IMG/VR virus record: IMGVR_UViG_648276645_000003
Location: 1 to 21,476 of that record
Direction: 5' to 3' (one strand)
DNA length: 21,476 nt
Source: a virus
Taxonomy: Duplodnaviria > Heunggongvirae > Uroviricota > Caudoviricetes
The notes below the pieces were generated by a model. That model saw nothing but the letters and a program-made list of their open reading frames with translations, had not been told where the DNA came from and searched no databases. Each line of letters opens with the position of its first letter. The stretch's first letter is position 1. The position numbers were made by a program, and so were the translations under genes. This document shows, in pieces, positions 9,010-21,476 of the stretch.

Positions 9010-9429
9010 ATGCTGTTTGTGCTTATTCTAAGCCACCGGGCAGCATCATACGGGGCAATTATGGCCGCATTACCATACATGCAACTGTACATAGCTGATT
9101 ACCTGGCTGACACCATGCATTTGTCAGCAGAGGAGCATGGTGCGTATTTGTTGCTGATGTTCAATTACTGGCAAACAGGAAAGCCAATACCTAAAAACAG
9201 GCTGGCAAAAATTGCCCGTCTGACTAACGAGCGATGGGCTGATGTTGAACCATCCTTGCAGGAGTTTTTTTGCGATAACGGCGAGGAATGGGTGCATCTT
9301 CGGATTGAGGAAGATCTGGCATCAGTCAGGGAAAAATTACCAAAAAATCAGCCGCAGGAAAAGCATCTGTTCAGGCCAGAAGAAGCAGAAAGGAAGCAGA
9401 TGTTCAAACAAAACAAGAGAGAAATTTAA
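9010..9429 (+). CDS. YdaU-like replication-region protein, N-terminal segment (possibly split by frameshift)
   Basis: 139-aa ORF; the ATG at 9061 (MAALPYMQLYIADYLADT...) has a better RBS (ACGGGG) than 9010; ends at 9429 while the next ORF's frame is already open from 9309. Confidence 0.55.
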   Translation: MLFVLILSHRAASYGAIMAALPYMQLYIADYLADTMHLSAEEHGAYLLLMFNYWQTGKPIPKNRLAKIARLTNERWADVEPSLQEFFCDNGEEWVHLRIEEDLASVREKLPKNQPQEKHLFRPEEAERKQMFKQNKREI

Positions 9430-9452
9430 CAGGTGTTCAAACAGATGTTGAA

Positions 9453-10208
9453 GTGGTGTTTGAACATGATGTCAACACAAAGGCAACTAATAAAGATACA
9501 GATAAAGATCTAAAAACAGATCTAACCCATCCCAAACCCTTCCCTTCCGGAAGGGCGTTTCGGGATTTTGTGGCTGGAGTGCTTGAGGGGAGATTATCTG
9601 GCGGTACTGCAGCGGAATTTTGTAATTCTGCGGTGGTTGCGTTGCAGGCTGCTGGCCTGGATGTCTGTCGTGAGTATCCGGTGCCAGAGCGTGGTGACGG
9701 TTGCGGTGGGCGGATTGATATCGTCGTGACTGACAGGAACGGTGTCCGGTGTGGGATCGAGCTTGACCGAAATTCTCCGCGACAGAAATCACTGCTCAAA
9801 ATCGGTGCTGTTGAAACCGGGATATGTGTCTTGCGGCGCAGTGATATCGCAAGGCACACCGAGCAGGGAATTCTGGTTATCGGCGGGGCTGTTCGCCAGA
9901 AAAAATTTGACCCGTTGTCAGTTGATCTGCCCGACTGGTTGCCAGAAACACTCTGGCATGAGTGGGTCCAGTTCAGGCAGGCATTGCGTAAACCGATTCG
10001 AACGGAGCAGGGCGCTAACGGGGCGATACGGGAGCTGGAAAAATTCCGCCAGCAGGGTTTTTCACCTGAGCAGGTGATTCGACACAGCATCGCCAATGAA
10101 TACCAGGGCTTGTTCGTGCCAAAAGGTGTTCGACCTGAGACGTTACTCCGACAGGTTAACACCGTCTCGTTACCGGATAGTGCGATCCCGCCAGGCTTTA
10201 GGGGGTAA
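9453..10208 (+). CDS. ydaU: YdaU-like replication-region protein, C-terminal segment
   Basis: Listed ORF starts at a GTG at 9453, but its frame is open back to 9309 with no ATG; basic linker (KKSAAGKASVQARRSRKEADVQ) when read from 9309; lies just upstream of the DnaC-like gene. Confidence 0.55.
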   Translation: MVFEHDVNTKATNKDTDKDLKTDLTHPKPFPSGRAFRDFVAGVLEGRLSGGTAAEFCNSAVVALQAAGLDVCREYPVPERGDGCGGRIDIVVTDRNGVRCGIELDRNSPRQKSLLKIGAVETGICVLRRSDIARHTEQGILVIGGAVRQKKFDPLSVDLPDWLPETLWHEWVQFRQALRKPIRTEQGANGAIRELEKFRQQGFSPEQVIRHSIANEYQGLFVPKGVRPETLLRQVNTVSLPDSAIPPGFRG

Positions 10209-10214
10209 CTGACC

Positions 10215-10949
10215 ATGAAAAATATTGCGGCAGGCGGCATTCTTGAACGTATCCGCAGACTGGCCCCGCCACATGTAACCGCCCCATTCAAAACGGTAGC
10301 GGAGTGGCGCGAGTGGCAACTTTCCGAAGGCCAGAAACGTTGTGAGGAGATCAACCGTCAGAATCGTCAGTTGCGGGTGGAAAAAATTCTGAATCGCTCT
10401 GGCATCCAGCCATTGCACCGCAAATGCTCGTTTGCGAATTACCAGGTGCAGAACGACGGTCAGCGATACGCGTTGAACCAAGCGAAATCTATCGCTGATG
10501 AACTGATGACCGGGTGTACAAATTTTGCGTTCAGCGGAAAACCTGGTACCGGAAAAAACCATCTGGCGGCGGCTATCGGGAATCGCCTGCTGAAAGATGG
10601 CCAGACAGTGATTGTGGTTACCGTGGCTGATGTCATGAGTGCTCTACACGCCAGCTATGACGACGGGCAATCAGGCGAAAAATTTTTGCGGGAACTGTGC
10701 CAAGTGGATCTGCTGGTTCTTGATGAAATTGGCATTCAGCGCGAGACAAAAAACGAGCAGGTGGTGCTGCACCAGATTGTTGATCGCCGGACAGCGTCGA
10801 TGCGCAGCGTGGGGATGCTGACAAACCTGAACTATGAGGCTATGAAAACATTGCTCGGCGAGCGGATTATGGATCGCATGACCATGAACGGCGGACGCTG
10901 GGTGAATTTTAACTGGGAGAGCTGGCGTTCGAATGTTGGCTTGCGATGA
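10215..10949 (+). CDS. ydaV: Replication protein, DnaC-like helicase loader (YdaV-like)
   Basis: 244-aa ORF; Walker A FSGKPGTGKNHLAAAIG and Walker B DLLVLDEIG; typical position after the O-like gene. Confidence 0.85.
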   Translation: MKNIAAGGILERIRRLAPPHVTAPFKTVAEWREWQLSEGQKRCEEINRQNRQLRVEKILNRSGIQPLHRKCSFANYQVQNDGQRYALNQAKSIADELMTGCTNFAFSGKPGTGKNHLAAAIGNRLLKDGQTVIVVTVADVMSALHASYDDGQSGEKFLRELCQVDLLVLDEIGIQRETKNEQVVLHQIVDRRTASMRSVGMLTNLNYEAMKTLLGERIMDRMTMNGGRWVNFNWESWRSNVGLR

Positions 10950-10990
10950 TTTTTATGAGGAAATAATCGACGAATGAGGGCTAATGTCTG

Positions 10991-11087
10991 GTCACCCGGT
11001 TGACAATTACAAATATTTTATTGACGATGAATGGAAAATGCGTGACGATTACAATATATGACTTGTCAAAGTATAATGAGAGATTGC
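10991..11087. promoter_or_regulatory. Iteron-like repeat array and promoter region upstream of the AAA+ ATPase gene
   Basis: TGAC(A/G)AT direct repeats begin at 11001, 11022 and 11043 (exact 21-bp period); inverted copy TTGTCAA at 11063-11069 and GTCAC at 10991-10995; -10 candidates TACAAT 11050-11055 and TATAAT 11072-11077. Confidence 0.5.
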
Positions 11088-12191
11088 ATGAAGATTAACC
11101 ATGAGGATTTAATTGATCTTATAAAGGCATCACTGGATGCGAATTACAGCGAAGTTCGTAGTGTTAGTAATCGCATTGTTCGCGCAATTAGCGCTCAGGA
11201 TGCTGACTTAGCAAAGCAAATTAAGTCTATCATCCGTAAAAAAGGGGTACCATTACGTAGCTCTGGTTATACGGACAGTTTGCCCTTAGATCCGAAATCA
11301 AGGATGCCTTTAGTGGAAGAAGTCGAATGGCCTGCAACGCCTTTATTTCTTTCTGATGAATCACAGCATATTTTTCATGCTTTTATTCAGAATGTTATCC
11401 ATCAGAATGAACTTATAGAGAATGGAATTCCAGGTAAATTGAATTTACTTCTTTCTGGTCCGCCAGGAACAGGTAAGACATTAGTCGCTGGTCATATCGC
11501 ATCCAAATTAAACAAACCGCTCTATGTTGTTCGGCTTGACTCTGTTATTTCTTCTCTGTTAGGTGATACAGCGAAGAACCTAAGACAGATTTTTGACTTC
11601 GTCCCGACAAAAGATGGTGTGTTATTTCTTGATGAAGTAGATGCGGTTGCTAAGCTTCGTGATGACAATCAGGAAGTTGGAGAGTTAAAAAGAGTTGTTA
11701 ACACATTAATCCAAGGACTGGATTCTCTTGATGATTCTGCTATTGTCATTGCTGCAACTAATCATTCGAAGCTATTGGATCCAGCAATTTGGAGACGTTT
11801 CCCATATAAAATTAGCTTTGGTTTGCCTGGACAAGATGTCAGATGTGCTATGTGGGAACATTTTTTATTTAGAGATGATACGGATTCATTTCTAAGTAAA
11901 ATGTTATCTATCATATCAACTGGGCTAACAGGTGCTGATATTGAAAATATCAGTTTATCTGCAAGAAGGCATAGTGTTTTATCTGGCAATGGACTGGATA
12001 TACCATCTGTTGTTTATGCTATATTGAATAGCGTTGCGGATAGTACAGCAATTCCTTTTGGTAAGGATATAAATTCGAGTGTTAAGAAAAATTTAGCGAA
12101 GGAATTATCTAAGTTTAAATTATCACAGGCAGATATCGGTAGACTTTTAAATGTGAGCAGGCAAACTATATCAGGTTATTTCAAGGAATAA
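11058..12191 (+). CDS. Classical-clade AAA+ ATPase with C-terminal HTH-like tail
   Basis: Walker A GPPGTGKT (residues 134-141), Walker B VLFLDEVD (188-195), sensor-1 IAATN, second-region-of-homology-like LLDPAIWRRF; C-terminal LSQADIGRLLNVSRQTISGYF resembles an HTH; alternative ATG at 11088 has a GAGAG RBS; AT-rich (~35% GC). Confidence 0.85.
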   Translation: MTCQSIMRDCMKINHEDLIDLIKASLDANYSEVRSVSNRIVRAISAQDADLAKQIKSIIRKKGVPLRSSGYTDSLPLDPKSRMPLVEEVEWPATPLFLSDESQHIFHAFIQNVIHQNELIENGIPGKLNLLLSGPPGTGKTLVAGHIASKLNKPLYVVRLDSVISSLLGDTAKNLRQIFDFVPTKDGVLFLDEVDAVAKLRDDNQEVGELKRVVNTLIQGLDSLDDSAIVIAATNHSKLLDPAIWRRFPYKISFGLPGQDVRCAMWEHFLFRDDTDSFLSKMLSIISTGLTGADIENISLSARRHSVLSGNGLDIPSVVYAILNSVADSTAIPFGKDINSSVKKNLAKELSKFKLSQADIGRLLNVSRQTISGYFKE

Positions 12192-12193
12192 TT

Positions 12194-14461
12194 ATGGTCA
12201 GTGAAAATAAAGCTAAAATTTTAAACCCAATAATTACTTTATTGAAACCACCAACGCCAGAGGCGATTCCTGTTGGAGGGAAAAGTCGTAAAAATATTGT
12301 TGGTTCACGGTTGAAACAACAGCGTGAAGTTTTATCCTCAGAGATAGATTCCATATTAAGAACAGAAAGTGAAATAGTTAAACATCGTGGTAAGTATCAT
12401 ATAGTAACAAGTATGTTTGAGGACTCATATGCACCATCGTTTATACCAGATTCATTATTCTGTCCCAGTGTTGAATGTAAGATAGTTGCACCAGCATACA
12501 ATGGATATTTAATTGAGGTCAATAGCAATGCTTTATTGAAGTTGAAAAATAAAATTAATAATGCAAAAGCTATTACTGATCTTGTGGATATTTCAAGGGT
12601 TAGAAGTGTTAGTCTTTTTGATTCATCTTGTACATTGCGAAATAGTAGCCTTGATTCGCTCTGGAATACAGTTAAGGCTTTGAATACATTTCAATTTAAT
12701 GTGTGGTTTATGCCTTTTTTTGATGAGCTTTCTAGAGAGTCTGTAGTTTCAACTTTTTTAAATTTTTTAAATGATGGTATCATCGCTTTTGGTTATTCAG
12801 ATTTTGACATAAAAACTATAAATCAAGATGCTGCTGTTGGCGGGGATAATATAGTCATAGTTCCACCGTTACTTATTGAAGCGATAAAAAAGTATCGTAA
12901 ATCAGGTCAAGCATCCGTTACCGTCACTGTAGAGACTAAAGATAGTTTAAACAGGATGCTGAATAGCAGTGCTGTGTATCGTATAGATCCTGTATCACCG
13001 CTAAACGTAACAGATACTCCTCCTGGTAATGGGGCTGAACCTGTTCCACCAATATTGGGGGATAAGAAAATGCCAACTGTAGTTGTAATTGATGGTGGGT
13101 GCAATGCGAAATCATATTCAAAATTAAATATATATAAACTAAATCCGCTAATTCCAGATCATGATGCAGATTGTAAACATGGTAATAAAGTTGTATCGTT
13201 GTTATGTCACGGTTATGCTTGGAATAATAATTTAAACTTACCTAAATTGCAATGTAGCTATATAAGTGCACAGGCTATTGCGAAAAGGGGAGTGTTGAAA
13301 CAACCAACTCCGGATCAATTTTTAAATTATTTAAGAATGGTTGCTGACAAAACGTCATCTATCGCCAAGGTCTGGAATCTTTCGTTTAATGAAGACGCTC
13401 CTCATTATAACTGTAATGAGATAAGTTATCTGGGACATAAAATCAGTTTGTTGGCTCGAGAATTTGGTATTCTGCCTGTAATATCTATCGGTAATGTTTC
13501 AAAGAACGAAAAACAAAAAAATCTTTGTCCGCCCGCAGATTGTGAGTCAGGAATTACAGTAAGTGGGAGAACGGCCAATCATGAAGGAATGCCTTCAGAT
13601 GGCTGTCCTTTAAGTCGGAAAGGCCCTGCTCCTGCAGGAATGAAAAAACCTGAGTTATCATGGTTTTCTCGAGTTAGGGTGATAGGTGGAACAGTAGATA
13701 TCGGAACAAGTTTTAGTGCTCCATTAGTTTCATCTATTGCTGCTCATACCTTTTCGAATATTAAAAATGCCACTCCTGATTTGGTTAGGGCATTATTGAT
13801 TAACAGGAGTGAGTTGCTTTCTCATGATGATGCATTAGGATGGGGGACTCCTTGGGATGGCGATTTACTGCCATGGTATTGTAAAGATGGCAGTGTCACA
13901 TTAACGTGGATATCTAAGTTAAAGGCTGGGGCTGCTTATTATTGGAACGATCTTCCATTACCTCCAGAGATGTTAGTTAATGGTAAATTAGTTGGTGAGA
14001 TATCTCTGACAGCTATACTAAAACCTAAGGTTTCTGAGTTCGGAAGTGAGAACTATTTTTCGACAAGGCTCCAATGTTCGTTACAGGCAATAAAAGAAAT
14101 TAACGGGACGCTAAAAACAGAAAGCCTTCTTGGGTCAATGAAAGAATCTTCTGTTGATGAGCGTAAAGCTAGAAATGAACTTTCTAAATGGAGCCCTATT
14201 CGCCATCATGCAGAGTCGTTTAAGAGAAAAGATATAACAGGGTGTAAAATTCGGCTTTATGCTAGGATATATGCTAGAGATTTGTATCAGTATGGGTTAA
14301 ATAACCAACGGGAGCTTGAAGAGCAAGAGGTTTCCTTTGTTTTAACTTTTAAAAGTGTATCAGGATCGTCCTCAATATATACATCAATGGTTCAGCAACT
14401 TGGTGTTTATGTTGAAAGTGCTGTTATAGATAATCACATTAACATAGATGTTAATAAGTGA
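12194..14461 (+). CDS. Subtilisin-like (S8) serine protease, large multi-domain, cytoplasmic
   Basis: 755-aa ORF starting 2 nt after the ATPase stop, with AGGA RBS inside the ATPase 3' end; ordered S8 motifs VVVIDGG (Asp300), CKHGNKV (His329), GTSFSAP (Ser507); no N-terminal signal peptide; about 290 aa N-terminal and 235 aa C-terminal of the catalytic core unassigned; AT-rich. Confidence 0.8.
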   Translation: MVSENKAKILNPIITLLKPPTPEAIPVGGKSRKNIVGSRLKQQREVLSSEIDSILRTESEIVKHRGKYHIVTSMFEDSYAPSFIPDSLFCPSVECKIVAPAYNGYLIEVNSNALLKLKNKINNAKAITDLVDISRVRSVSLFDSSCTLRNSSLDSLWNTVKALNTFQFNVWFMPFFDELSRESVVSTFLNFLNDGIIAFGYSDFDIKTINQDAAVGGDNIVIVPPLLIEAIKKYRKSGQASVTVTVETKDSLNRMLNSSAVYRIDPVSPLNVTDTPPGNGAEPVPPILGDKKMPTVVVIDGGCNAKSYSKLNIYKLNPLIPDHDADCKHGNKVVSLLCHGYAWNNNLNLPKLQCSYISAQAIAKRGVLKQPTPDQFLNYLRMVADKTSSIAKVWNLSFNEDAPHYNCNEISYLGHKISLLAREFGILPVISIGNVSKNEKQKNLCPPADCESGITVSGRTANHEGMPSDGCPLSRKGPAPAGMKKPELSWFSRVRVIGGTVDIGTSFSAPLVSSIAAHTFSNIKNATPDLVRALLINRSELLSHDDALGWGTPWDGDLLPWYCKDGSVTLTWISKLKAGAAYYWNDLPLPPEMLVNGKLVGEISLTAILKPKVSEFGSENYFSTRLQCSLQAIKEINGTLKTESLLGSMKESSVDERKARNELSKWSPIRHHAESFKRKDITGCKIRLYARIYARDLYQYGLNNQRELEEQEVSFVLTFKSVSGSSSIYTSMVQQLGVYVESAVIDNHINIDVNK

Positions 14462-14501
14462 TGTACAGAAACTGATTTATTATTATGTTAATTAATGTAT
14501 T

Positions 14502-14522
14502 ACCCGCCTCGGCGGGTTTTTT
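14502..14522 (+). terminator. Rho-independent terminator of the ATPase-protease operon
   Basis: GC stem CCCGC/GCGGG with 4-nt loop, followed by T6 at 14517-14522, about 40 bp past the protease stop. Confidence 0.75.
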
Positions 14523-14555
14523 ATCTGCCGATGGTGAAGGTTGAAAAATAATCAC

Positions 14556-14620
14556 ATATTTGATTGTATGCGCAGCAAGAAATAAAAGTCATTGCGTTCG
14601 CACATTAAACAATCAAATAT
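14556..14620. repeat. 12-bp perfect inverted repeat pair with 41-bp spacer
   Basis: ATATTTGATTGT at 14556-14567 and its reverse complement ACAATCAAATAT at 14609-14620. Confidence 0.6.
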
Positions 14621-14704
14621 ACAACATGAAATAAACATTCTGTGTATATATATTTTTGCCTCCAGGTAGATATAAACCTCTTTCCTTAGAGGCTTGGAGG
14701 CATC

Positions 14705-14917
14705 GTGAAAAACTCACAGGAATCTTTTAGCACTAAATTTGCAGTCATACGTTGTGATGATCTGTCAGTTATTGTTGAAATGGATTATTTCCCTGATACA
14801 CAAAAAGCAATGATGTATCGGAATGGCCGCAAGGCAATTTTTTTACCGATGAGGAATAGTGATATTATGGGAAATGATAAATTGCCAGATGAATTGCGAG
14901 TCAGGGCATCCTGTTAG
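14705..14917 (+). CDS. Small hypothetical protein in the AT-rich island
   Basis: 70-aa ORF with GTG start preceded by GGAGG (14696-14700, 4-nt spacer); AT-rich like the upstream operon; no recognisable motif. Confidence 0.45.
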   Translation: MKNSQESFSTKFAVIRCDDLSVIVEMDYFPDTQKAMMYRNGRKAIFLPMRNSDIMGNDKLPDELRVRASC

Positions 14918-14988
14918 TATTGGCATTGATTCTGGTATACTACACAACGGGCTGAACACCCATTCTACTGCGCCAGCGGAGAACTACG

Positions 14989-15588
14989 ATGGCGCATATA
15001 CAACTGGTCAAACAAACCTCTTCCGGATTACTTCTCCCGGCGACGCCGGAGAGTTGTGATTTTCTGCATCAAATAAAAATAGGTGAGTGGATACACGCAG
15101 ACTTTAAGCGTGTGCGTAACTACGCATTCCACAAGCGTTTTTTCAAACTCCTGCAACTGGGATTCGATTACTGGACTCCGGTCGGTGGGGCGATCACGCC
15201 TCGCGAACGAGAACTGCTGTCTGGTTTCGTGGATTACCTGTGCGAATCAGTTGGTCGGGAACATACGCCAGCCCTGAGTGATGCCGCAGAGCAATACCTT
15301 AACACCGTTGCGACTCGCAGAACCCGGGATACGGCGTTGCTAAAGTCGTTTGAGGCTTTCCGCGAGTGGGTAACCATTCAGGCCGGATTTTACACCGAGC
15401 ATATTTATCCGGACGGTAGCCGTGGGCGTCGGGCAAAATCCATCGCTTTTGCGAATATGGACGAAGTCGAGTTTCAGCAGGTTTATAAATCTGTACTGAA
15501 TGTGCTGTGGAACTGGATTCTGTTCCGTAAATTCTCCTCTCAGGAGGAAGTTGAAAATGTGGCCGCACAACTACTGGAGTTTGCGTAA
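14989..15588 (+). CDS. Conserved lambdoid nin-region protein, function unknown
   Basis: 199-aa ORF with GGAGAA RBS; backbone-like GC content; first gene of a translationally coupled block leading to the Q-like gene. Confidence 0.7.
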   Translation: MAHIQLVKQTSSGLLLPATPESCDFLHQIKIGEWIHADFKRVRNYAFHKRFFKLLQLGFDYWTPVGGAITPRERELLSGFVDYLCESVGREHTPALSDAAEQYLNTVATRRTRDTALLKSFEAFREWVTIQAGFYTEHIYPDGSRGRRAKSIAFANMDEVEFQQVYKSVLNVLWNWILFRKFSSQEEVENVAAQLLEFA

Positions 15589-15878
15589 TGGTGAATTTAC
15601 GTAAAGCGGCTAAAGGCCAGATGTGCCAGATCAGAATCCCTGGCTACTGCAATCACAATCCCGAAACCTCTGTGCTGGCGCATTACAGGCTGGCGGGGAC
15701 GTGCGGAACAGCGACAAAACCACACGATATGCAGGCGGCGATAGCCTGTAGCTCATGCCACGATCTAATCGACGGGCGGGTAAAAACCAGCGATTACACC
15801 AAAGAAGAATTGCGCCTGATGCATGCTGAAGGGGGTTTTCGCACACAAGAAATCTGGAGAAAGAAAGGTCATTTATGA
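15588..15878 (+). CDS. Small Cys-rich phage protein (possible zinc-binding), function unknown
   Basis: 96-aa ORF, TAATG overlap with the upstream gene; Cys clusters (CQIRIPGYC and CSSCHDLIDG). Confidence 0.65.
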   Translation: MVNLRKAAKGQMCQIRIPGYCNHNPETSVLAHYRLAGTCGTATKPHDMQAAIACSSCHDLIDGRVKTSDYTKEELRLMHAEGGFRTQEIWRKKGHL

Positions 15879-16417
15879 TTTACCCAACAAATACAGGTAA
15901 AAGCGGGGAACACCTTCGTCTCACCACGCTGGAAAGTGTCTGGATTCAGGGAAAACTGCGCATGTGGGGGCGCTGGTCGTATATTGGCGGCGGTAAGACG
16001 GGGAATATGTTCAACCAGTTGTTGGGCTCTAAAAAGCTGACAAAAACGGCAATTAACGAGGCGCTCCGGAGGATGAAAAAAGCAGGCCTGAACAAGTCTG
16101 AACTTGAGGCTTTTTTGCGGGATATGATTAACGGTAAGCAAAAGAGCTGGCTGGCGCATTGTACTGATGCAGAGGCGTTATGTATTGATCGGGTCATAAG
16201 TGAGGTGCTGGCAGAGCATCCAGGATTGATTAGCGTCCTTCGGCAACGGTATGAGGGGCGGGGGATGACCAAACGCAAAATGGCTGAATTGCTAAATGAT
16301 GCACACCCAGAGTGGTGTTTTAGCACATGCGAAAAGCGAATTGCTAATTGGTTAGCCGTTGCTGAATATGCCCTGTATATTCCCATGCGAGAATCATTTG
16401 CTCAAAAAATAGCTTGA
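15875..16417 (+). CDS. Putative late-gene antiterminator (Q-like)
   Basis: 180-aa ORF, ATGA overlap with the upstream gene; last gene before a terminator hairpin, the tRNA cluster and the lysis cassette; assignment is positional. Confidence 0.55.
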   Translation: MIYPTNTGKSGEHLRLTTLESVWIQGKLRMWGRWSYIGGGKTGNMFNQLLGSKKLTKTAINEALRRMKKAGLNKSELEAFLRDMINGKQKSWLAHCTDAEALCIDRVISEVLAEHPGLISVLRQRYEGRGMTKRKMAELLNDAHPEWCFSTCEKRIANWLAVAEYALYIPMRESFAQKIA

Positions 16418-16750: not shown

Positions 16751-16826
<76 letters not shown>

Positions 16827-16829
16827 TAT

Positions 16830-16904
<75 letters not shown>

Positions 16905-18762: not shown

Positions 18763-18899
18763 AATCTTAACTACAATATGATTCATTTTGATGATTGTTT
18801 CATAAGGAACAGTGAAGTAAGATCTAAGAGGGGTTAAATTTTATACAGTATAATCATAATATTGCAGCAAGGTGGTTATAATTGAAAGAATATTTAGAT

Positions 18900-20357
18900 A
18901 TGAATACATCTCATGTAAGAGTTGTTACTCATATGTGTGGGTTCCTGGTTTGGCTCTATAGTCTTTCAATGTTGCCACCAATGGTTGTAGCATTGTTTTA
19001 TAAAGAAAAAAGCCTGTTCGTTTTCTTTATAACTTTCGTTATATTTTTTTGCATTGGTGGCGGAGCGTGGTATACAACTAAGAAATCTGGCATTCAATTA
19101 CGTACCCGTGATGGGTTTATTATAATTGTAATGTTTTGGATTTTGTTTTCTGTTATTAGTGCATTCCCTTTATGGATTGACTCAGAACTTAATTTAACGT
19201 TCATTGATGCTCTGTTTGAAGGGGTTTCTGGAATAACAACAACAGGAGCAACTGTAATTGATGATGTTAGTTCATTACCTCGGGCATATTTGTACTATCG
19301 GTCACAGTTAAATTTTATAGGTGGTTTAGGAGTTATTGTTCTGGCGGTTGCTGTATTGCCATTATTGGGTATTGGTGGTGCAAAGCTTTATCAGTCAGAA
19401 ATGCCGGGGCCATTTAAGGATGACAAACTCACTCCCCGCCTGGCCGATACGTCACGGACACTGTGGATAACTTATTCTTTATTAGGTATTGCTTGTATTG
19501 TCTGTTATAGACTTGCAGGAATGCCTTTGTTTGATGCTATTTGTCACGGGATTTCCACAGTTTCGCTTGGTGGTTTCTCAACTCATAGCGAGAGTATCGG
19601 ATATTTTAATAACTATTTGGTTGAGCTGGTGGCTGGTTCTTTTTCCCTGCTATCGGCTTTCAACTTCACTCTTTGGTATATTGTTATTAGCAGGAAAACG
19701 ATAAAACCTTTAATCAGAGATATTGAACTTCGTTTCTTTCTGTTAATAGCCTTAGGGGTGATCATTGTTACCTCTTTCCAGGTCTGGCATATAGGTATGT
19801 ATGACTTGCATGGAAGTTTTATTCATTCGTTTTTTCTTGCCAGCTCCATGCTCACTGATAATGGTTTAGCTACGCAGGATTATGCAAACTGGCCCACGCA
19901 CACGATAGTGTTTTTGCTGTCGTCAAGTTTCTTTGGGGGATGTATAGGTTCAACTTGTGGTGGAATTAAGTCACTTCGATTTCTTATACTTTTCAAACAA
20001 AGCAAACACGAGATAAATCAGCTTTCTCATCCCAGAGCGTTGTTGAGTGTAAATGTAGGAGGGAAGATAGTTACAGATCGTGTAATGAGGTCTGTATGGA
20101 GTTTCTTTTTTCTTTATACTCTCTTCACGGTGTTTTTTATACTGGTGTTAAATGGTATGGGATATGATTTTCTTACATCATTTGCAACAGTGGCTGCATG
20201 TATTAATAATATGGGATTAGGTTTTGGGGCTACTGCATCGTCATTCGGAGTGCTTAATGACATTGCAAAATATTTAATGTGCATAGCTATGATTCTTGGT
20301 CGCCTTGAAATTTATCCTGTTATTATATTGTTTTCAGGTTTTTTTTGGCGCTCCTAA
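18900..20357 (+). CDS. trkG: Trk-system potassium uptake membrane protein TrkG
   Basis: 485 aa from ATG at 18900 (MNTSHVRVVTHMCGFLVWLYSLSMLPP...), matching my recall of Rac TrkG; multi-pass membrane protein; AT-rich (~35% GC); longest ORF begins at a TTG at 18882. Confidence 0.9.
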   Translation: MNTSHVRVVTHMCGFLVWLYSLSMLPPMVVALFYKEKSLFVFFITFVIFFCIGGGAWYTTKKSGIQLRTRDGFIIIVMFWILFSVISAFPLWIDSELNLTFIDALFEGVSGITTTGATVIDDVSSLPRAYLYYRSQLNFIGGLGVIVLAVAVLPLLGIGGAKLYQSEMPGPFKDDKLTPRLADTSRTLWITYSLLGIACIVCYRLAGMPLFDAICHGISTVSLGGFSTHSESIGYFNNYLVELVAGSFSLLSAFNFTLWYIVISRKTIKPLIRDIELRFFLLIALGVIIVTSFQVWHIGMYDLHGSFIHSFFLASSMLTDNGLATQDYANWPTHTIVFLLSSSFFGGCIGSTCGGIKSLRFLILFKQSKHEINQLSHPRALLSVNVGGKIVTDRVMRSVWSFFFLYTLFTVFFILVLNGMGYDFLTSFATVAACINNMGLGFGATASSFGVLNDIAKYLMCIAMILGRLEIYPVIILFSGFFWRS

Positions 20358-20983: not shown

Positions 20984-21476
20984 CGTCACGAAGATGGATG
21001 CGTTTGGCTGTACCAGTCGGGGGCAGGCGCACCGCGCCGGGCTGTGGCTGATTAAAACAGAACTGCTGGAAACGCAGACCGTGGACTTCAGCGTGGGTGC
21101 CGAAGGGCTTCGCCATGTACCGGGCGATGTCATTGAAATCTGCGATGATGACTATGCCGGTATCAGCACCGGCGGGCGCGTGCTGGCGGTGAACAGCCAG
21201 ACCCGGACGCTGACGCTCGACCGTGAAATCACGCAGCCATCCTCCGGCACCACGCTGATAAGCCTGGTTGACGGAAGTGGCAATCCGGTCAGCGTGGAGG
21301 TCCAGTCCGTCACCGACGGCGTGAAGGTGAAAGTGAGCCGGGTTCCTGACGGCGTTGCCGAGTACAGCGTGTGGGGGCTGAAGCTGCCGACGCTGCGCCA
21401 GCGCCTGTTCCGCTGTGTGAGTATCCGTGAGAACGACGACGGTACGTATGCCATCACGCCGTGCAGCATGTACCGG
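20931..21476 (+). pseudogene. Internal fragment of lambda-J-like tail fibre / host-specificity gene (runs off the window)
   Basis: Frame-0 translation TATELVEDSQAIARYGRNVTKMDAFGCTSRGQAHRAGLWLIKTELLETQTVDFSVGAEGLRHVPGDVIEICDDDYAGISTGG... matches my recall of an internal region of lambda J; no start codon; GC-rich. Confidence 0.85.

Follow-up and report, generated by a model that had tools for sequence, protein, structure and literature searches.

What occupies the low-GC (guanine plus cytosine) interval between the replication genes and the nin module of a Rac-type prophage, and how did it come to be there? The stretch of DNA in question, hereafter the window, is the 21,476-nt virus record IMGVR_UViG_648276645_000003 (Caudoviricetes). 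A first-pass annotation had described an island of about 4 kb at 10950-14950, read as a horizontally acquired cargo cassette inserted into a prophage hotspot. According to our analysis, the island is very probably a self-contained cassette of the IetAS family, in which the ATPase gene ietA is followed by the protease gene ietS, carried as accessory cargo by a Rac-type prophage at the ttcA site, in the slot that separates ydaV from a ninB-like gene, with a role in abortive infection or addiction suggested by homology. The coordinates of the features are collected in Table 1.

A two-gene cassette of the IetAS family

The plus strand of the island holds two long co-directional open reading frames (ORFs), 11058/11088-12191 and 12194-14461, and a 70-codon ORF. 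The ORFs on the minus strand all have 75 aa or less and lack support. Judged by profile matches and motifs, the island is a two-gene ATPase/protease cassette of the known IetAS family and not a new system. It encodes an IetA-family AAA+ ATPase with intact ATPase motifs and an IetS-family S8 peptidase with an intact catalytic triad, in the operon order of the family.

Besides the PADLOC profile, IetA matches Pfam AAA (4e-29), phrog_3757 (7e-108) and NCBIfam IteA (1.3e-88), and its ATPase core is nearest to Cdc48/p97/VAT in the PDB (3e-41). The start at 11088 is the one called by PGAP in the equivalent gene of L001, a genome that shares the island, and the profile alignments agree with it; the longer ORF start at 11058 is probably not the real start. 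In 23 IetA homologues the Walker A (G124-K130), Walker B (D182-E183) and sensor-1 (T224-N225) residues and the arginine fingers (R236-R237) are invariant. The AlphaFold2 model of IetA, with a predicted local distance difference test (pLDDT) value of 82, runs from an N-terminal helical bundle through a linker (residues 53-72) and the AAA core to a helix-turn-helix (HTH). This HTH has three helices (residues 330-366, pLDDT ~92) and is also matched by Pfam HTH_3 (0.004) and phrog_8 (4e-5); R358 and Q359 within it are invariant. The linker (window ~11244-11303) is predicted to be disordered (pLDDT 41-60), and G53, P55, L56, S59, G60, P66, D68, K70 and S71 are invariant in it across the family. It is a candidate interaction or pseudosubstrate segment.

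IetS is composed of a family-specific N-terminal region, the catalytic domain and a C-terminal beta-jelly-roll. Its D300 (IDGG), H329 (HGN), N395/N399 and S506 (GTSFSAP) are invariant in 18 homologues of 43-67% identity. The AlphaFold model (predicted template modeling score 0.82) resembles Tk-SP (3e-13), KP-43 and furin in Foldseek, which are subtilases with a C-terminal beta-jelly-roll. Searched by sequence against the PDB, IetS found no match, and the fold search returned generic subtilases only. Both proteins belong to full-length PHROG families of unknown function (phrog_3757 for IetA, phrog_3964 for IetS).

Only 2 nt separate the ietA stop from the ietS start, and an AAGGAA ribosome-binding site for ietS lies inside ietA. 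The downstream neighbor of ietA is ietS in 74 of the 76 homologous loci in which this could be tested, and a single terminator follows ietS. As predicted from this layout, ietA and ietS are one translationally coupled operon.

Relatives of the window pair

Both proteins align collinearly and over their full length to NCBIfam IteA and IteS. They miss the equivalog cut-offs, with 297.7 bits vs 510 for IteA_antiphage and 177.8 vs 900 for IteS_antiphage, and their identity to the canonical E. coli IteA/IteS is 36% for IetA (without the C-terminal tail) and 27% for IetS. By these comparisons the window pair is a diverged IetAS subtype, placed nearer to the Ti-plasmid type. Rhizobial plasmid IetA proteins are 52-55% identical to the window IetA and have the same HTH tail. 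The pTiC58 and rhizobial systems share the gene order, with an AAA ATPase of ~370 aa followed by an S8 protease of ~750 aa, and the rhizobial plasmid copies (L018, L027-L029) carry the same kind of phased 21-nt boxes that we describe below for the window. In contrast to pTiC58 IetAS, the window pair is carried by a prophage instead of a plasmid and its host is E. coli; moreover, the work on pTiC58 did not concern phage defence. The ietAS genes of this Agrobacterium Ti plasmid were reportedly described by Yamamoto et al. in 2009 (J Bacteriol 191:4656).

Outside Escherichia, the nearest IetS is from Klebsiella (67%), followed by Pectobacterium (59%), and IetA is better conserved. Homologous pairs reside in a region resembling an integrative and conjugative element, in a P4-like satellite beside toxin-antitoxin (TA) modules, in a CP4-57-like island and on rhizobial plasmids. 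A Salmonella protein with 69% IetA identity (P0125) was considered as SgiA of Salmonella genomic island 1 (SGI1) and ruled out, as its context is a CP4-57-like island.

Three described systems are close in design. The canonical anti-phage IetAS, or IteA-IteS in the NCBI naming, which we take to be the system of Gao et al. 2020 (Gao_Iet), has the same architecture and chemistry as the window pair. Its locus in E. coli CT282 (L095) lies beside a tRNA-Thr/conjugative island, not in a prophage, and no 21-nt array was evident upstream of it on a brief look, unlike in the window. SgiAT of SGI1 (S026/S025) is likewise a subtilase toxin with an ATPase antitoxin on an integrative mobile element; the paper on it mentions neither an HTH nor repeats, and the likeness to the window pair is one of description (PMC5006074). 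The ietHAS system, which joins an SNF2 helicase to IetAS, shares the IetA/IetS core (PMC13069673), but the window has no helicase gene and its cassette is strictly two genes.

Boundaries of the cassette and exchange of slot contents

Base composition was profiled in 400-nt sliding windows along the window. The low-GC discontinuity of the first-pass annotation is borne out: GC is 0.366 in 10950-14950 vs 0.528 in the left flank (9453-10936) and 0.495 in the right flank (14989-16417), and the 400-nt windows give 0.32-0.42 inside the trough (~11000-14950) and 0.51-0.55 on either side. Codon usage, which the annotation had proposed as a check, agrees, as third-position GC is 0.27 in ietA and 0.26 in ietS, far below ydaV (0.59) and the DUF1367 gene (0.53). 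The island is the lowest-GC 3.5-kb stretch of the window; further low-GC patches are present, e.g. trkG (0.378). The steepest drop in GC falls at 10945 and the steepest rise near 14903.

Alignment to island-less relatives delimits a variable segment at 10937-14501 (3,565 bp). On the left, homology stops at 10936, which lies 13 nt inside the 3' end of ydaV, so an edge drawn just past the ydaV stop (10949) was essentially right. The final 13 nt of ydaV (10937-10949) come from the swapped segment and give the protein a variant C-terminus ending in SNVGLR. On the right, an edge at ~14950 agrees with composition and disagrees with homology, which resumes at 14502. The relatives put the boundary between 14501 and 14502, and the cassette had been drawn ~450 bp too far to the right. 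Therefore, 14502-14988, including the 70-aa ORF, is backbone and not cargo. This ORF is conserved in the island-less relatives and annotated there as a 213-bp hypothetical CDS.

The right boundary coincides with an intrinsic terminator hairpin. The same hairpin stands after ietS, hok or doc in L001-L004 and is common to every alternative cargo set. The match with L001 ends at 14521, while those with L002-L004 begin at 14502. Because L001 shares the island and diverges from the window directly past the hairpin, a crossover inside it is indicated. The hairpin is the right boundary of the slot and likely the point where recombination crossed over.

The island is rare and the slot is not. Among 5,426 complete E. 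coli genomes, one (OkiPb01675) has the island, at the same site and 99.7% identical. The exact IetS occurs in the same Rac context in three further assemblies, two of which have IS1 just downstream. More than 2,000 genomes keep both flanks with different content between them. This alternative content nearly always includes DUF1627 and DUF977 genes, and relatives have as added cargo hok, a doc toxin module, QueH, an orphan methyltransferase, DUF551 fragments or a type II restriction-modification (R-M) pair. Conserved flanks thus enclose unrelated alternative gene sets, as in a hotspot, and the earlier claim of horizontally acquired cargo in a prophage hotspot stands, given the foreign composition, the single occurrence among the complete genomes and the same flanks with other cargo. 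As for signals of its own, the cassette has a clear terminator; for a promoter it has a consensus match that does not exceed chance.

Two relatives deserve mention for the contents of this region. L005, the closest overall relative, has a complete type II R-M pair in the slot at 12734-15749 (MTase_II 1e-80, REase_II 1e-52), and ~900 bp past this pair are unannotated. L006 and L007, in which the island is identical, contain ~770 bp of extra DNA inserted shortly past the ietS terminator. The equivalent of window 14579-14588 appears duplicated around this insertion, a DDE_Tnp_IS1 transposase is called in L007, and the insertion is probably IS1.

The first-pass annotation had the island inserted into a formerly empty site. 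An event of the transposon, integrase or insertion sequence (IS) type would suit the sharp compositional edges, and IS1 is active nearby in sister strains. However, such an event is very improbable here. The ORF list of the island contains no transposase or integrase. Direct or inverted repeats shared by its ends do not exceed chance, the longest having 8 nt where shuffles reach 10, and the target-site duplication that had been proposed as a check is absent. Among the relatives examined no empty site was found; instead, they hold other genes between the same ydaV end and the same hairpin, and the divergence of L001 just past the hairpin is what a crossover within it would give. K-12 Rac, which had been named as an empty site, is ruled out as a reference, since ydaW follows ydaV in it and the whole nin module is deleted. 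Because the relatives carry other genes in the interval with the same flanks, and repeats and a transposase are missing, we infer that one cargo module was replaced by another through homologous exchange at the ydaV 3' end and the shared hairpin, and that the island did not arrive by transposition.

Lambdoid mosaicism proceeds by such module exchange, through recombination at short conserved sequences (PMC3945230). The P2/P4 hotspots (PMC9122126) and the lambdoid mosaics (PMC3945230) have in common with our slot conserved flanks, swappable cargo for defence or TA functions, and an exchange that uses short conserved stretches. Our slot differs from the P2/P4 hotspots in its place in Rac-type prophages, with ydaV on one side and the ninB-like gene on the other, and in being bounded by a shared terminator hairpin on the right. 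We found no paper that describes a slot at this place. The island DNA had no match in deposited phage genomes, distant mode included, and among plasmids it reached only 65-68% similarity, confined to the AAA core, in rhizobial and Enterococcus plasmids. A donor was not identified in these phage genome and plasmid searches.

A 21-nt box array upstream of ietA

The control region of ietA contains four in-phase boxes with an exact spacing of 21 nt, TTGACAA (11000-11006), TTGACGA (11021-11027), GTGACGA (11042-11048) and TTGTCAA (11063-11069). The fourth box abuts a -10-like TATAAT at 11072-11077. A strict three-box pattern occurs once in the window and in 0/100 shuffles. The box at 11063 was at one point taken as an inverted copy; this was dropped, as family comparison shows TTGTCA to be an in-phase variant. 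The same layout is found in the Klebsiella and Pectobacterium loci despite differing surrounding DNA.

The period does not depend on a chosen motif. We counted 5-mer self-matches against shuffles in 73 non-redundant upstream regions of 170 nt from 83 loci. At a lag of 21 there were 165 self-matches vs 13.8 ± 4.7 in shuffles (z ~32), at 42 there were 109 vs 11.7 (z ~23) and at 63 there were 45 vs 9.8 (z ~9). No other lag from 5 to 70 rose above z = 3 in these regions. Control windows further upstream or within genes gave 2-33 matches at lag 21, and the period is thus specific to the proximal upstream region. When the box is taken strictly as TTKWCR, two or more in-phase copies are present in 66% of loci and three or more in 32%, compared with 0.2% and 0% of shuffles. 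The array accompanies the cassette in hosts from Enterobacterales to Planctomycetota metagenome-assembled genomes (MAGs).

The box sequence changes with the HTH of IetA. The main box class goes with a recognition helix S/T-R-Q-x-I/V, while distant clades with the helix SKATA or SQSYV have the box ATCGTYTC or ATCGCA at the same 21-nt period. Wherever boxes were detected, each helix class kept to its own box class (~60:0 vs 0:3), with no mixed loci. Many antitoxins repress their own promoter, and the window has two features of an autoregulated TA system, a DNA-binding domain on the putative antitoxin and repeated candidate operator sites in its own promoter region. On account of the change of box with recognition helix and of the family-wide array, we lean toward IetA repressing its own operon through the 21-nt boxes. 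As 21 nt make two helical turns, the boxes would face the same side of the DNA, where oligomeric IetA would bind them and so repress its promoter. Tight repression would fit the weak native promoter of SGI1 sgiAT.

NtrC-like enhancer-binding proteins are AAA+ proteins with a C-terminal HTH. Like the proposed IetA, these bacterial proteins are ring-forming ATPases whose C-terminal HTH reads repeated upstream sites. IetA, in contrast, belongs to the classic clade (Cdc48/FtsH-like) and not to the sigma-54 activator clade, and its 21-nt direct repeats overlap the promoter region of ietA itself, suggesting repression.

Several points weigh against autoregulation. The signal could be partly promoter-related, given the likeness of the TTGACA-type box to the sigma-70 -35 hexamer, the covariation of helix and box comes from only two or three independent clades, and promoter-like matches in the ietA control region are not above chance. 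Instead of being operators of IetA, the boxes might be tandem -35-like promoter elements, or they might be bound by a host factor or some other protein. The main box TTGACA equals the sigma-70 -35 consensus, and in many loci the proximal box has a median position of -35 relative to the start codon. This alternative is possible but doubtful: a promoter does not require elements repeated three to five times with offsets of exactly 21, 42 and 63 nt, clades with another HTH helix have another box at the same period, and the array moves with the cassette from Enterobacterales to Planctomycetota MAGs, which speaks against a host factor. Autoregulation by IetA is the reading we prefer.

The best promoter-like site in the window is ATTACA-18-TATAAT (11048-11077), and the promoter scan overall was not above chance; assignment of the promoter from consensus alone was set aside as unconvincing. 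In many alphaproteobacterial loci (among L015-L094) the proximal box reads GTTGACA and lies at -34/-35 from the annotated start codon. If the proximal box doubles as the -35 element, the ietA mRNA could be leaderless, a point that depends on the annotated starts.

It is conceivable, though rather unlikely, that the IetA ring, bound to the boxes by its C-terminal HTHs, is part of the action of the system, so that, for instance, a phage trigger or loss of ATPase activity would free IetA from both DNA and IetS. A literature search, which did not extend to the 2009 description of ietAS, turned up no mention of repeats, an HTH or autoregulation in connection with these genes.

Proposed function

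In ietAS systems toxicity comes from the protease and the ATPase counters it as antitoxin; defence needs the protease activity and the mechanism is unknown (PMC13069673). In ietHAS, ietA could not be inactivated, and diverse ietAS systems protect against phage (PMC13069673). In Bacillus, an ietAS system responds to YosG of SPbeta with abortive infection (10.1101/2022.08.27.505566), and the E. coli ietAS systems are often borne by prophages (10.1101/2022.08.21.504612). The pTiC58 ietAS was studied as a TA system for plasmid stability and incompatibility, as cited in PMC13069673. The sgiAT pair of SGI1 is a functional TA system whose native promoter does not have the strength needed for post-segregational killing (PMC5006074).

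By analogy with these systems, toxin and antitoxin roles and an anti-phage action may be ascribed to the window pair. IetS would act in the cytoplasm as a subtilisin-type protease whose free form is toxic. IetA would keep it harmless while hydrolysing ATP, and would limit expression of the operon in the lysogen. A product of a superinfecting phage may disturb the balance between IetA and IetS; the freed IetS would cleave cellular targets, and the cell would arrest or die before the phage completes its cycle. The same pair could act as an addiction module that penalises loss of the prophage.

Several points count against this view. The identity to the canonical pair is low and both scores lie under the NCBIfam cut-offs, as given above. 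To our knowledge, anti-phage activity has been shown only for other IetAS subtypes. The closer relatives, on the Ti plasmid and SGI1, were studied as TA modules. Finally, the frameshift in the neighboring ydaU may point to decay of the prophage.

These points feed two alternatives. The pair could serve solely as an addiction module that stabilizes the Rac prophage by post-segregational killing, with no anti-phage role. The characterization of the closest studied relatives as TA or stability modules (pTiC58 ietAS, as cited in PMC13069673, and sgiAT, PMC5006074), the hok and doc TA modules that relatives hold in the slot, and the distance of the subtype from the canonical anti-phage E. coli pair all argue for it. 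We regard it as improbable, as diverse ietAS systems protect against phage by abortive infection, the defence hidden Markov models of PADLOC match over their full length, and the slot of one relative is occupied by a type II R-M pair; besides, addiction and defence are not exclusive. Still less credible is that ietA and ietS are decaying remnants without function. Rac prophages are often cryptic and ydaU is frameshifted, but neither cassette ORF is truncated or has lost any invariant catalytic or motif residue, an independent genome carries the island at 99.7% identity, and the exact proteins recur in several assemblies. The role that we favor thus remains that of an IetAS-family cassette acting in abortive infection, addiction or both.

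The surrounding prophage

The window is a Rac-type prophage adjoining ttcA, in which intR, recET, the racR region, ydaS-V, the lysis module and trkG are present. Table 1 lists the features of the cassette and its flanks.

Table 1. Features of the IetAS cassette, its control region and the adjoining backbone (window coordinates)
Feature	Position	Strand	Evidence or remark
ydaV-like IstB/DnaC-type ATPase gene, left flank backbone	10215..10949	+	Pfam IstB_IS21 3e-20
Left junction and ietA 5' control region, AT-rich	10937..11087	+	Breakpoint vs relatives
Four in-phase boxes at exact 21-nt spacing, candidate operator array	11000..11069	+	Family comparison
ietA, 367-aa classic-clade AAA+ ATPase with C-terminal HTH	11088..12191	+	PADLOC IetA 5.2e-100, 361/374 profile positions
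ietS, 755-aa cytoplasmic S8 subtilase	12194..14461	+	PADLOC IetS 1.3e-65; Pfam Peptidase_S8 6e-14; NCBIfam IteS 3e-52
Intrinsic terminator, hairpin ACCCGCCTCGGCGGGT (14502-14517) and T-run	14502..14522	+	Sole terminator match in 10800-15100
Low-GC (0.39) shared backbone, outside the cassette	14502..14988	+	90-93% identical to island-less L002-L004
70-aa ORF, GTG start	14705..14917	+	phrog_1813 (function unknown) 4e-31
DUF1367 / NinB-Orf-type gene, first of the nin module, right flank	14989..15588	+	Pfam DUF1367 6e-98; phrog_319 NinB/Orf 7e-70

To the left of the island, the ydaU-like replication gene (9010-10208) is frameshifted by a 1-nt deletion near 9338, where the window reads AAAAATT-ACC and L001 and K-12 read AAAAATTAACC. 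The deletion shifts the YdaU match from frame 1 to frame 3, and 9477-9899 has no YdaU match. The gene is probably a pseudogene or a hybrid, and the prophage may be cryptic; a sequencing error would also give this picture.

An Rfam scan of the whole window gave no match in the island and found only the RalA small RNA and two tRNAs elsewhere. RalA, the antitoxin of the Rac RalR/RalA type I TA system, lies at 1557-1735 (+, 225 bits). The two prophage tRNA genes, at 16751-16823 and 16830-16901 (+), stand between the DUF1133 (Q-like) gene and the lysis genes, and the tRNAs at the matching place differ in relatives, being Ile/Arg in L001 and Thr/Gly in L005. A second low-GC cargo gene is trkG (18882-20357, +; GC 0.378, third-position GC 0.32), a classic passenger of Rac. 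At 21000-21400 GC climbs to 0.63, far above the rest of the window, and relatives have ParB-like and terminase-region genes there.

Implications

The window presents a rare E. coli case of the Ti-plasmid-like IetAS subtype. The NCBI naming rules miss this subtype, and its copies receive no more specific annotation than "AAA family ATPase / S8 peptidase". The slot of Rac-type prophages from ydaV to the ninB-like gene alternates between R-M, TA and IetAS cargo and is therefore a place to seek further systems. If the IetA ring on the boxes does take part in the action of the system, derepression of the operon would be tied to activation of the protease, and the disordered linker 53-72 would be a candidate pseudosubstrate of IetS. 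The 21-nt array and the HTH that covaries with it offer a concrete hypothesis on how the ATPase of this family may be linked to DNA and to its own expression, a modest new lead.

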